A DNA stretch of 64,000 nt from Escherichia coli (GCF_003334405.1 NZ_QOWM01000004.1), one strand, 5' to 3'; numbered from the stretch's first letter, positions 481 to 38,280 are shown. A program made the numbers and translations. Notes: generated by a model not told the origin, from the sequence alone.

Positions 481-864
481 ATGTTCGTTGACAGACAGCG
501 AATCGATCTGCTGAACCGGTTGATCGACGCACGCGTTGACCTCGCCGCATACGTGCAACTGAGGAAGGCAAAAGGATACATGTCCGTCAGCGAAAGCAAT
601 CATCTACGAGATAACTTTTTTAAACTGAATCGCGAACTGCACGATAAATCGCTGCGGTTGAATCTTCATCTGGATCAGGAAGAGTGGAGTGCTCTTCATC
701 ATGCTGAAGAAGCATTAGCGACAGCCGCAGTATGTTTGATGAGTGGGCACCATGATTGCCCGACTGTTATTACCGTCAACGCCGATAAGCTTGAAAATTG
801 TCTGATGAGCTTAACGCTGAGTATCCAGAGCCTGCAGAAGCACGCCATGCTTGAGAAGGCCTGA
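481..864 (+). CDS. bssR: Biofilm regulator BssR (127 aa)
   Basis: Track ORF 448..864; start moved to ATG 481 (MFVDRQRIDLLNRLI...) preceded by aggagg RBS; recognised protein. Confidence 0.85.
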   Translation: MFVDRQRIDLLNRLIDARVDLAAYVQLRKAKGYMSVSESNHLRDNFFKLNRELHDKSLRLNLHLDQEEWSALHHAEEALATAAVCLMSGHHDCPTVITVNADKLENCLMSLTLSIQSLQKHAMLEKA

Positions 865-36190: not shown

Positions 36191-37090
36191 TTACGCAGAG
36201 AAAAAGGCGATGAGGATCGGCACTAACAGGCTAAGAATAAAACCGTGAACAATTGCCGCCGGGACCATATCCAGCCCGCCAGTACGTTGAAGAACGGGCA
36301 GGGTGAAATCCATTGATGTGGCACCGCATAAGCCCAGTGCAGTAGAGCGGCTGCGGCGAATCAGCCCAGGGATCAACATAATAGCAATCAGTTCACGGGC
36401 CAGATCATTAAAAAACGCCGCGCTCCCGATTACCGGACCAAAAGATTCGGTCAATAAAATACCGGAAAGAGAATACCAGCCGAAACCGGAGGCCATTGCC
36501 AGCGCGGTATTGATGGGGAGATCAAGAATAAAGGCGTTAATTAAACCACCAATTAATGAACTGACAACCACCACCACGGCGACAATCATTCCCCGGCGAT
36601 TAAGGACAATCTGCTTTAAGGTCATGCCATTATTGCGCAACTGAATACCAACGAGGAAAAGTAGCAAAATTAACGTGTATTCACTGGCTTCGGTCGCGTG
36701 TTGTAAGAAAGCCAGTCCACTTAGACCAATGGCAAAACCAATCACTACTACGCCGCACAGTTTTAGCGACTCCAGCGCCATCGCAATACGCGACGGGAGT
36801 TTTTCTTGCTGATGGTGGTTGCGCCACGGCAGGCCTCGCTCCAGCCACATCAGGGCGGCAATATTACACAGTAAAATAACGGTAATACTGACGGCAGAAT
36901 AATGCAGAATCGCCAACAGGTTACTGGCGAGGTTATCGAGAAACGCCAGACTGATACCCATAAAAAAGAGAATAAGGTAAACCATCCAGCTTAATAGCTG
37001 ATTAATAACTTTTAACGCAGCTTGTTGGCGAAGCGGAATGAGGTAACCCACAATCAGGGGAACCAGAATGATTAACAGCCCAGAAAACAT
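36191..37090 (-). CDS. lysO: Lysine exporter LysO/YbjE (299 aa)
   Basis: Track ORF 36191..37138 trimmed to MFSGLLIILVPLIVGYLIPL...; polytopic membrane protein. Confidence 0.85.
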   Translation of the reverse strand: MFSGLLIILVPLIVGYLIPLRQQAALKVINQLLSWMVYLILFFMGISLAFLDNLASNLLAILHYSAVSITVILLCNIAALMWLERGLPWRNHHQQEKLPSRIAMALESLKLCGVVVIGFAIGLSGLAFLQHATEASEYTLILLLFLVGIQLRNNGMTLKQIVLNRRGMIVAVVVVVSSLIGGLINAFILDLPINTALAMASGFGWYSLSGILLTESFGPVIGSAAFFNDLARELIAIMLIPGLIRRSRSTALGLCGATSMDFTLPVLQRTGGLDMVPAAIVHGFILSLLVPILIAFFSA

Positions 37091-37545
37091 GAAAACCCAG
37101 TCCTTGCAAAGATGAAGTCGAAATGCGCGATGACACACTACTGAAAGCGGAAGGACGAGTAAAGTTGCAATTAAAAGGAAATGTTATGCATAAGGAGCAG
37201 TAGAGTATTCGTTTTCATTTAAAGATATTCTTGCGCTTTAATTACAAACTGCACCGATGTTGGTGGCGTCAAAATCGCCGAGGCGTTCCCTGAAGGCCGG
37301 GGCAGCCCACATGGATGTGGGCTGAGGGCGCGTTTTACAGGGATGTTACCTCGCGCCCGACCCGGTAGCCGTAAGGGATAAGCCGAGGGCACCGCGCAGC
37401 GGCGATTTTGTTCGCCAGAGCCCGGGGGTGCAGGGGGCGGCGGCGATTGGCCGCCCCCTGCGCGCTCCTTGCGCCAGTGGCAATATGTTGCTTAGCTCAT
37501 GAAAGGAGCGCAACAAGATGATGAATCAACATATAACAACATCTT

Positions 37546-37574
37546 AAAAAAAGGCCTGACATTACGCCAGGCCT
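37546..37574 (-). terminator. Rho-independent terminator of aqpZ
   Basis: Minus strand: hairpin aggcctg...caggcct followed by ttttttt. Confidence 0.6.
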
Positions 37575-37584
37575 TCTGCGTTAA

Positions 37585-38280
37585 TTAATCACGCTTTTCC
37601 AGCAGGGTCCGGTAAATCAGACCACCGATAATGCCGCCGACAATTGGCACCACCCAGAAGAACCACAGTTGTTCTAATGCCCAGCCGCCCTGGAAGATAG
37701 CAACCGCGGTGCTGCGCGCCGGGTTAACAGAAGTGTTAGTCACCGGAATACTAATTAAGTGAATCAGGGTTAAGGCCAGACCAATAGCGATCGGCGCAAA
37801 ACCTGCCGGCGCGAATTTGTCGGTTGCGCCGTGGATCACCAACAGGAAACCTGCACTCAATACCAGTTCAACTACCAGCGCGGAAAGCATGGAATAACCG
37901 CCTGGTGAATGCTCGCCATAACCGTTAGAAGCAAAACCGCTGGCTGCCGCGTCAAAACCCGTTTTACCACTGGCAATTAAATACAGCAGCGCCGCTGCAA
38001 CAATACCGCCGACAACCTGGGCAATTACGTAGCCAACGACTTCTTTTGCCGGAAAACGTCCGCCAGCCCATAAACCAATAGTGACCGCCGGGTTAAAATG
38101 ACCACCAGAAATATGACCAACAGCAAAGGCCATCGTCAGAACGGTCAGACCGAACGCCAACGCCACGCCGGCAAAACCAATGCCTAATTCCGGGAAGCCT
38201 GCGGCCAGTACAGCACTACCACAGCCACCAAAAACAAGCCAGAAAGTACCAAAACATTCAGCTGCTAATTTTCTGAACAT
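37585..38280 (-). CDS. aqpZ: Aquaporin Z (231 aa)
   Basis: Track ORF 37585..38286 trimmed to [15 protein letters not shown]...; two NPA motifs. Confidence 0.93.

Follow-up and report, generated by a model that had tools for sequence, protein, structure and literature searches.

A GC-rich block between lysO and aqpZ of Escherichia coli is very probably the TRIP1a repeat, the replication risk sequence RRS-lysO

The GC-rich hairpin block between lysO (ybjE) and aqpZ in a 64,000-nucleotide stretch of Escherichia coli DNA (GCF_003334405.1, NZ_QOWM01000004.1; this whole stretch is called the window here) is very probably the TRIP1a intergenic repeat and with it RRS-lysO, one of the two replication risk sequences (RRS) of E. 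coli. The element was already listed in 1999 (Rudd) and its function received experimental support in 2023-2026, so the identification itself is a rediscovery. An earlier sequence-only reading of the window had offered two possibilities, namely an uncatalogued structured RNA or leader, or a member of a GC-rich intergenic repeat family such as Box C. The second possibility was borne out, with TRIP1 in place of Box C as the family, and the element proved to be catalogued under the names TRIP1a and RRS-lysO, with an activity at the DNA level that has been shown experimentally.

Identity and architecture of the block

The TRIP1 family was first listed in Rudd 1999 and described further in Li et al. 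2024 (Genes 15:236), where TRIP1a covers K-12 positions 915016-915281 (266 bp). It is given there as preceding the ybjE/lysO start by 158 bp and as following the aqpZ stop by 70 bp and, quoting Rudd, the aqpZ terminator by 31 bp. In the window, both genes lie on the minus strand with the annotated ATG of lysO at 37090 and the stop of aqpZ at 37585, and these distances put the element at 37249-37514. Identity to K-12 TRIP1a was 99.7% over 296 nt, followed by 94.5% to TRIP1c and 86.5% to the long TRIP1b, and against K-12 and further E. coli the identity over the stretch between lysO and aqpZ was 99.7-100%. By BLAST homology, for which Li et al. 2024 ask for more than 80% length coverage, the block belongs to the family, and its sequence mapped to K-12 915016-915281 and carried the G-quadruplex (G4) motif of the RRS. 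The RRS papers are Pham et al. 2023 and 2024 (NAR) and Kusi-Appauh et al. 2026 (bioRxiv). In the Methods of Pham 2024, RRS-lysO is a 222-bp stretch upstream of lysO (168-389 bp). The G4 motif of that paper, GGGGGTGCAGGGGGCGGCGG, had a single exact match on the plus strand of the window and zero on the minus strand, while none was expected by chance.

The element was matched in 5426 of 5426 complete E. coli genomes by BLAST, with a median of 3 places per genome and a range of 1 to 10, and is thus multi-copy as a member of a repeat family should be. Paralogues were found at dusC-yohP, putP-efeU and alx-sstT. Li et al. 2024 give putP-ycdN, yohI-yohG, alx-sstT and copA-ybaP as the other TRIP1 loci, each type occurring at one fixed locus, and the copies at dusC-yohP, putP-efeU and alx-sstT were likewise found at fixed loci. 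Compared with the published TRIP1 repeats, the sequence, the aqpZ-ybjE/lysO locus, the length of 266 bp, a GC content of 62-65%, the paralogues, a short form that has lost 125 bp internally and a direction that varies are all shared and nothing differs, as the block of the window is TRIP1a itself. With RRS-lysO and RRS-dusC it shares the 222-bp core and the exact G4 motif, with no difference in sequence, and its G4 strand would likewise be the template of the lagging strand.

The GC-rich hairpin block was confirmed as real. GC content was 64.8% over 37260-37520, the segment named in the sequence-only reading, compared to 37% in either flank and 51.7% in the whole window, and it rose to 65.4% for 37249-37514 and to 68.5% for 37258-37479, where the G-C skew was +0.13. 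The stems and inverted repeats of that reading were all recovered in place by the repeat finder, as were the two copies of CGGCGATT (Table 1). The GC stem was present as well, with 12 bp and an 8-nt loop where 11 bp and a 10-nt loop had been given. The gap between the two genes had been stated as 446 bp, which applies only from a GTG at 37138 and becomes 494 bp from the annotated ATG.

Table 1. Coordinates of the TRIP1a/RRS-lysO element and its parts, counted from the first letter of the window
Feature	Position	Strand	Sequence or form	Basis
TRIP1a repeat	37249..37514	+	266 bp, = K-12 NC_000913.3 915016-915281	distances to lysO ATG and aqpZ stop, identity
RRS-lysO core	37258..37479	+	222 bp	Pham 2024 definition; near-identical to K-12 dusC copy (L003) in alignment
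Cloned "extended RRS", right end	37524	+		Pham 2024
Closing helix P1, 5' arm	37264..37280	+	UGGCG + CAAAAUCGCCG	RNA and DNA MFE folds, repeat
Long-range pair	37270-37285 with 37395-37410	+	16 nt, 88% complementary	repeat finder
Internal module absent from short forms	37303..37427	+	125 nt, flanked by direct repeats GTTCCCTGAAGGCCGGGG and GTTCGCCAGAGCCCGGGG	repeats, alignment
Hairpin 1	37303..37324	+	9-bp stem, loop UGGA	repeats, RNA fold
Hairpin 1, arms	37303-37312 with 37315-37324	+	CAGCCCACAT/ATGTGGGCTG	repeat finder
10-mer in hairpin 1	37309-37318	+	ACATGGATGT	motif search
Hairpin 2	37326..37358 (37326-37332 with 37352-37358)	+	outer stem GGGCGCG/CGCGCCC, inner ACA-GGGA-UGU	repeats, RNA fold
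10-mer in hairpin 2	37337-37346	+	ACAGGGATGT, 28 nt after hairpin 1 10-mer	motif search
Closing helix P1, 3' arm	37400..37417	+	CGGCGAUUUUG + CGCCA	repeat, folds, alignment
Direct repeat, two copies	37400-37407, 37441-37448	+	CGGCGATT	repeat finder
Published G-quadruplex motif	37424..37443	+ only	GGGGGTGCAGGGGGCGGCGG	exact match; Pham 2024
Perfect GC hairpin	37430..37461 (37430-37441 with 37450-37461)	+	12 bp, 8-nt loop	repeat, RNA and DNA folds
Terminal helix	37462..37511	+	GCGCUCCUU/AAGGAGCGC around small variable hairpin	repeat, alignment
Terminal helix, arms	37462-37470 with 37503-37511	+	GCGCTCCTT/AAGGAGCGC	repeat finder
aqpZ intrinsic terminator (outside element)	37544..37581	-	AAGGCCUG...CAGGCCUU, then U run	sequence, repeat

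ORFs of 37-57 aa overlap the block. It is not coding, since elsewhere the block is inverted or has lost about 75 nt (L004) or 125 nt (short forms) internally, and 125 is not divisible by three. The position between the two genes might suggest a lysO leader or regulatory region, or a 3' element belonging to aqpZ, and so might a Shine-Dalgarno-like AAGGAG at the right end of the element that is followed by ATGATG. Yet AAGGAG is a structural arm of the terminal helix that covaries with its partner and is absent in the E. albertii copy L021, and the 9-codon ORF at 37518-37547 is not conserved. Near-identical copies moreover adjoin the unrelated genes dusC, putP and alx, and at the locus itself the element is inverted or shortened in other strains that retain LysO and AqpZ. 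A role as leader or 3' element is therefore extremely improbable.

REP/BIME repeats and Box C resemble the element in being GC-rich, palindromic, intergenic and variable between strains. The REP-derived naRNA4 model gave no match in 36800-37900 at E up to 10, while it does detect REPs elsewhere (L005 203-280, 59.3 bits). In K-12, the alx-sstT cassette that replaces TRIP1d has a different palindrome, CCCTCTCCC/GGGTGAGGG, which we take to be Box C-like. No obvious similarity between this cassette and TRIP1 was seen by eye in a forced three-way alignment.

Conserved fold, deletion forms and orientation

Folding was compared with 200 dinucleotide shuffles per run, as RNA and as DNA and on both strands. 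As RNA, the MFE of the block was -146 kcal/mol on the plus strand and -134 kcal/mol on the minus strand, both with a z of -5.5. As DNA, it was -85.2 and -81.4 kcal/mol with z of -6.9 and -7.8, respectively, and in each of the four runs 0 of 200 shuffles matched the native folding. Every full-length copy folds alone into the common architecture, with the plus strand more stable by 10-30 kcal/mol in each of them. This surplus says little by itself, since any G-rich strand would be expected to show it.

Pairing was examined across ten variants, comprising TRIP1a, the long TRIP1b, TRIP1c in both orientations, TRIP1d in long and medium form, two E. albertii copies, and the medium and short forms of TRIP1a. 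The MFE structure of the window was mapped onto this alignment, because the RNAalifold consensus of the mixed alignment was distorted by the gapped short forms. On this structure 91% of cells were paired, and 93.6% in the closing helix P1 (helix 1). Pairs that had changed on both sides numbered 14, compared to 5.1 in column shuffles, where 0 of 500 reached 14, and to 1-6 when partners were slid. The sample behind these counts is small, comprising 10 sequences that are related to each other, and one of these supplied the structure that was tested.

The changes fell in several helices of the fold. In TRIP1d (L130), three stem pairs of hairpin 1 were changed on both sides with CAUGGAUG retained, and hairpin 2 showed one compensatory change from G-C to A-U. 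The GC hairpin of the inverted dusC allele (L005) had two compensatory changes from C-G to A-U, and the terminal helix of TRIP1b had paired U-to-C and A-to-G changes. In E. albertii L021, both arms of P1 were replaced compatibly, CCGGC..GUAAAUCGCCG pairing with CGGCGAUUUAC..GCCGG by eye, and the arms of its terminal helix read CGUUCAC/GUGAACG. These compensatory changes point to selection on the fold, and we infer that it acts on the entire multi-helix structure and not on the G-run alone.

The short forms, which are represented by K-12 TRIP1b and a short inverted TRIP1a allele (L001), lack the internal module between two direct repeats that end in CCGGGG; this 125-bp internal deletion is also reported in Li et al. 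2024. Two independent medium forms lacked only the two hairpins, the deletion again lying between short direct repeats, and the intermediate deletion forms L004 and L007 go beyond the short form described in that paper. All deletion forms retain the G-run, the GC hairpin and the terminal helix. An orphan 5' arm of P1 also persists in the short forms, which must therefore derive from the long form by deletion; the long form did not arise by insertion into the short one. The loss of hairpins between short direct repeats in L004, L007, L001 and K-12 TRIP1b is the outcome expected of slippage across DNA hairpins, and the hairpin core thus appears to be a separable module.

Orientation varied at both RRS loci. 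At lysO-aqpZ the element was inverted in L001 relative to the window, and at dusC-yohP it was inverted in L005 and L006 relative to the K-12 copy (L003), the flanking genes being unchanged in each case. Reversed copies make up 1255 of 4703 TRIP1a (27%, lysO) and 2789 of 5741 TRIP1c (49%, dusC) in Li et al. 2024. The orientation classes differed by about 7% in sequence, the neighbouring intergenic sequence differed as well, and alx-sstT in K-12 held a different palindromic cassette with no empty site. From the inversion classes, the differing neighbouring sequence and the alx-sstT cassette, the alleles look like old intergenic cassettes that were swapped by recombination. They resemble neither a switch that flips nor a transposon, as the adjacent sequence differs too and alx-sstT offers no empty site. 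The intermediate deletion forms, the count of compensatory changes and the alleles that differ as whole intergenic cassettes are additions to the published description of TRIP1.

Replication gaps, and the RNA reading of the hairpin core

Published experiments show that the element works as DNA. Unwinding at the fork exposes its G-rich strand, which corresponds to the plus strand of the window, as lagging-strand template, and the folded strand halts Pol I, II and IV in vitro and slows Pol III in vivo. The lagging-strand polymerase then releases and resumes synthesis downstream, and the gap that remains behind the fork, which can reach about 2 kb, is loaded with SSB and RecA.

The formation of RecA/SSB-loaded gaps has been demonstrated experimentally for the K-12 copy. 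In ssGap-seq, RecA and SSB peaks occur on the lagging-strand template beside both RRS, and deleting an RRS abolishes its peak. Relocated copies still produce RecA peaks and inverted ones none, the RecA/SSB peak being absent in the reversed orientation (Pham 2024). On M13 templates, synthesis by Pol I, II and IV along the G4 strand halts at the G4 site, and effects on the complementary strand are smaller and different (Pham 2024). Single-molecule assays gave a gap at essentially every replisome passage with the G4 strand as lagging-strand template, and fewer when it was reversed. The RRS papers further describe the element as conditionally essential and as affecting topology: both copies could be deleted only together with a 200-kb amplification, or with ectopic or inverted copies present, and deleting or inverting both altered psoralen binding and supercoiling genome-wide. 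The RRS authors further propose that the polymerase block is a G-quadruplex at 37424-37443 and that both copies, which lie symmetrically around dif, serve as topological relief valves.

The plus strand of the window corresponds by synteny to the top strand of K-12 in the right replichore, and cumulative GC skew is positive across the window, which fits the plus strand as lagging-strand template. On these two grounds the G4 strand would be the lagging-strand template in the source genome too; the window itself holds neither origin nor terminus.

Several observations bear on how the block would act. The 5' arm of the GC hairpin overlaps the G4 motif, so the two structures are mutually exclusive, and the perfect 12-bp hairpin would compete with the G4, which counts against the G4 mechanism. 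No test of a G4 point mutant was found in the portions of the RRS literature covered here. The natural inversions at both loci count against an orientation-dependent mechanism, and although the RRS papers, in the same portions, call position and orientation highly conserved, many natural strains have inverted or truncated copies. A pure roadblock model does not require loops that stay constant while their stems covary, as is seen in the core hairpins. The covered portions of the RRS papers stress the G4; the two GGA-loop hairpins, CsrA (0 occurrences) and TwoAYGGAY go unmentioned in them.

TwoAYGGAY (RF01731; Weinberg et al. 2010) belongs to the Rfam clan CL00106, which it shares with CsrB. 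Its model aligned full-length to 37269-37408 on the plus strand with 30.2 bits (E = 0.019 in the 1.1-kb region) against a threshold of 43 bits, and scored 33.1 and 28.4 bits on two other TRIP1 variants. The Rfam scan suggested by the sequence-only reading thus brought no family at threshold on 36800-37900 in a search to E 10, TwoAYGGAY being the best match and the others noise or on the aqpZ terminator. At the gathering threshold, TwoAYGGAY matched none of the E. coli or E. albertii loci tested. The likeness lies in two adjacent hairpins with apices ACAUGGAUGU and ACAGGGAYGU, a long closing stem P1 and a multi-copy, intergenic occurrence. TRIP1 differs in scoring only 28-33 bits, in showing no similarity outside the loops, and in having extra helices and a fused G-run/GC-hairpin module that the wider family is without. 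Membership of the TRIP1 core in TwoAYGGAY is not established.

In the window, the apices ACAUGGAUGU and ACAGGGAUGU are 28 nt apart and are the sole ACANGGAYGT sites in 64 kb. Loop 1 (AUGGAU) fits AYGGAY, loop 2 (AGGGAU or AAGGAC) has R for Y, and the P1 stem is present. An AGGGAC loop is also found in members of the original TwoAYGGAY alignment, and the loop words of the core occur in its Psychromonas members (Weinberg et al. 2010). Both loops of the core hairpins, each located at a predicted apex, resemble the CsrA SELEX consensus RUACARGGAUGU; one matched at 9 of 12 positions and the other, UUACAGGGAUGU in hairpin 2, at 11 of 12.

These loops are what an action as RNA would build on: the plus strand would be transcribed, and two ACA-NGGA-UGU hairpins 28 nt apart would bridge a CsrA dimer as a decoy or cis element. 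Constant loops on covarying stems, the uniqueness of the two sites in 64 kb, the end-to-end alignment of TwoAYGGAY on the plus strand and the clan shared with CsrB all agree with this. Cappable-seq start sites on the plus strand convert to window positions 37061, which is antisense within lysO and has a score of 10.4, and 37251, whose score of 1.55 is at the detection limit, so the GGA strand may be transcribed at a low level. Against it stand Rfam scores that all fall under the 43-bit family threshold, the occurrence of both orientations relative to the neighbouring genes in E. coli, and the absence of a CsrA CLIP-seq peak and of an expression change for dusC and ybjE in the tables of Potts 2017, although reads from two copies so nearly alike may have been dropped there. 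The promoter and terminator consensus scan of the region recovered no sigma-70 consensus promoter and no terminator, having overlooked even the aqpZ terminator, where the loop is 9 nt. In its GGA-bearing hairpin loops that fit the SELEX consensus, TRIP1 resembles the sRNAs CsrB, CsrC and RsmZ; it differs from them in having only two sites, no promoter or terminator found and no CLIP-seq signal on the neighbouring genes, and CsrB scores 380 bits on its own Rfam model. CsrB carries about 20 CsrA sites. A structured RNA or leader as the main function, which the sequence-only reading had offered as one option, is not supported by Rfam scores, orientation or CLIP-seq, and the action as RNA through CsrA is quite improbable.

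A composite of the replication risk sequence with the TwoAYGGAY-like core would make TRIP1 an enterobacterial offshoot of the TwoAYGGAY double hairpin that became fused to the G-run/GC-hairpin module, with the constant loops as candidate site of a sequence-specific protein. As the ACA-NGGA-YGU loops are constant while their stems covary, they may indeed be such a site, and the binder may be CsrA on a plus-strand transcript from 37061 or 37251, or a factor that binds hairpins of single-stranded DNA. We consider the composite unlikely as a whole.

The wider double-hairpin family and its bearing on the element

A scan for the two loop words over one genome per species returned at least 120 loci, and among the matches listed the double hairpin was present in several copies in many gamma-proteobacteria and in some Firmicutes MAGs, the genera including Marinobacter, Arenimonas, Lysobacter, Shewanella, Acinetobacter and Psychromonas. 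Of 20 loci tested with the TwoAYGGAY model, 18 of them from outside Escherichia, 3 reached the threshold (L110, L022 and L039). Homology of TRIP1a to the Psychromonas member L022 outside the loops was rejected, as the local score of 38 was below the shuffle mean of 43, and common descent is unproven for lack of such similarity.

Among the matches listed, the wider family showed no replication-strand bias, with local GC skew positive at 48 and negative at 67 loci (p = 0.09). The direction of skew was, if anything, opposite to that in E. coli among these matches. A strict G4 lay near the core on the same strand in 4 and on the opposite strand in 3 of the 120 matches listed (about 3%, against a background of 0.9%), which is marginal at such small counts, and a relaxed RRS-like G4 pattern was not enriched near the listed cores (9% and 17% against a background of 10%). 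Between co-directional genes no preference for sense was seen, with 14 sense and 17 antisense among the matches listed, which also speaks against the RNA reading. Divergent, promoter-bearing intergenic regions were shunned (1 of 52 among the matches listed), as they are by REP-like repeats.

A wider family of this kind raises the question of a selfish or decaying interspersed repeat, REP- or MITE-like, which would have no selected host function, would cause gaps as a side effect of its hairpins and would survive in E. coli as a low-copy remnant. The same pair of loops within a long stem is multi-copy in other genera, some loci reach the TwoAYGGAY threshold, divergent regions are avoided with no bias relative to genes or GC skew among the matches listed, and in E. 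coli the copy number varies and deletion derivatives and cassette replacement are common. The repeat finder, however, detected no terminal inverted repeats, each TRIP1 type sits at one fixed locus (Li et al. 2024), the compensatory changes point to selection on the fold, and outside the loops there is no similarity to the Psychromonas member. A MITE or other transposable element was rejected, given the missing terminal inverted repeats and an alx-sstT cassette that was replaced whole, with no clean empty site or target-site duplication. A selfish repeat is accordingly an improbable account of the element.

As TRIP1a and RRS-lysO, the block is the first sequence in bacteria for which programmed post-replication gaps have been demonstrated, and it is proposed to ease topological stress along the borders of the Ter domain. 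The conserved fold and the often-deleted hairpin core bear on tests of G4 versus hairpins, and the frequent natural inversions challenge the view of a strictly conserved orientation. Through its TwoAYGGAY-like core with CsrA-site-like loops, an E. coli element that has been studied in depth is connected with a large repeat family still lacking an explanation. For RRS research, the leads offered here are this core, the modularity of the fold, and the inversions and deletions seen in natural strains. Should the composite reading be true, a protein bound at the loops would add another level of control to the replication risk sequence. In the opposite direction, the TwoAYGGAY "RNA motif", an orphan since its description in 2010, may in many bacteria be a structural element that works at the level of DNA and not an RNA.

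Start sites and a small ORF beside TRIP1a

Two published Cappable-seq start sites lie on the + strand near lysO and TRIP1a, the GC-rich repeat between lysO and aqpZ. The stronger lies within the 5' end of lysO, antisense to this gene, and TTGGCG-18-CACAAT is, from its sequence, a plausible candidate promoter for it. A transcript from this site would run across the lysO promoter region and then TRIP1a, on the G4 strand. The nine-codon ORF beside the right end of TRIP1a is probably not a gene: the SD-like AAGGAG before it forms one side of a helix that covaries, and other TRIP1 copies have a different ORF there or none.

Features near TRIP1a and at compared loci
Feature	Locus	Position	Strand	Remarks
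Cappable-seq start site	window	37061	+	U00096.2 914051, converted; score 10.4
Cappable-seq start site	window	37251	+	U00096.2 914241, converted; score 1.55
ORF MMNQHITTS	window	37518-37547	+	3' of SD-like AAGGAG (37503-37508)
K-12 TRIP1b, short copy	L132	1460-1600	-	
Diverged TRIP1-like copy	L021	345-660		Escherichia albertii; 83% over ~190 nt
Tandem hairpin arrays	L018	3525-3640		Colwellia piezophila
Tandem hairpin arrays	L111, L112			Thalassotalea
Hairpin GTNACTTTTCTCTTGG...CAAGAGAAAAGTNAC	L022	~600-660		Psychromonas
Hairpin GTNACTTTTCTCTTGG...CAAGAGAAAAGTNAC	L114-L117	upstream flanks		Proteobacteria MAG SZAS-93

TRIP1 copies at other loci

In the short K-12 TRIP1b copy (putP-efeU), the G-run is degenerate (GGGACAGCAGGGGGCGGCGG) and the G-rich strand is the presumed leading-strand template; either the degenerate run or the strand placement could explain the absence of a reported third RecA/SSB peak there. 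The E. albertii copy is surrounded by REP/BIME sequences and has weaker G-runs (GGG..GGG..GG..GG); its long closing helix P1 and its terminal helix are each rewritten in both arms in a pairing-compatible manner.

At alx-sstT, K-12 (L131 232-629) was compared with TRIP1d (L130 1553-2169) and its medium form (L007). K-12 carries an unrelated palindromic cassette, CCCTCTCCC/GGGAGAGGG/GGGTGAGGG, which we take to be Box C-like, at the TRIP1d position of some other strains. The exchange covers the entire intergenic cassette, and no clean empty site was found in this comparison.

L001, L004 and L008, whose records are labelled as E. coli plasmids and measure 42-155 kb, contain chromosomal segments including TRIP1 copies, either ybjX-ybjD-aqpZ-lysO-hcp-hcr or putA-putP-efeUOB. 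These could have been picked up from the chromosome or could be artefacts of assembly.

Double-hairpin repeats in distant genomes

In Colwellia piezophila and Thalassotalea, the ACATGGATGT and ACAGGGATGT hairpins are repeated in tandem, head to tail, with a unit length of 34-51 nt; elsewhere they are found as one pair within a long stem. In Psychromonas and the Proteobacteria MAG, the double hairpin comes together with a further hairpin that is conserved, GTNACTTTTCTCTTGG...CAAGAGAAAAGTNAC, which suggests that double-hairpin repeats are mosaics of shared modules, as BIMEs are.
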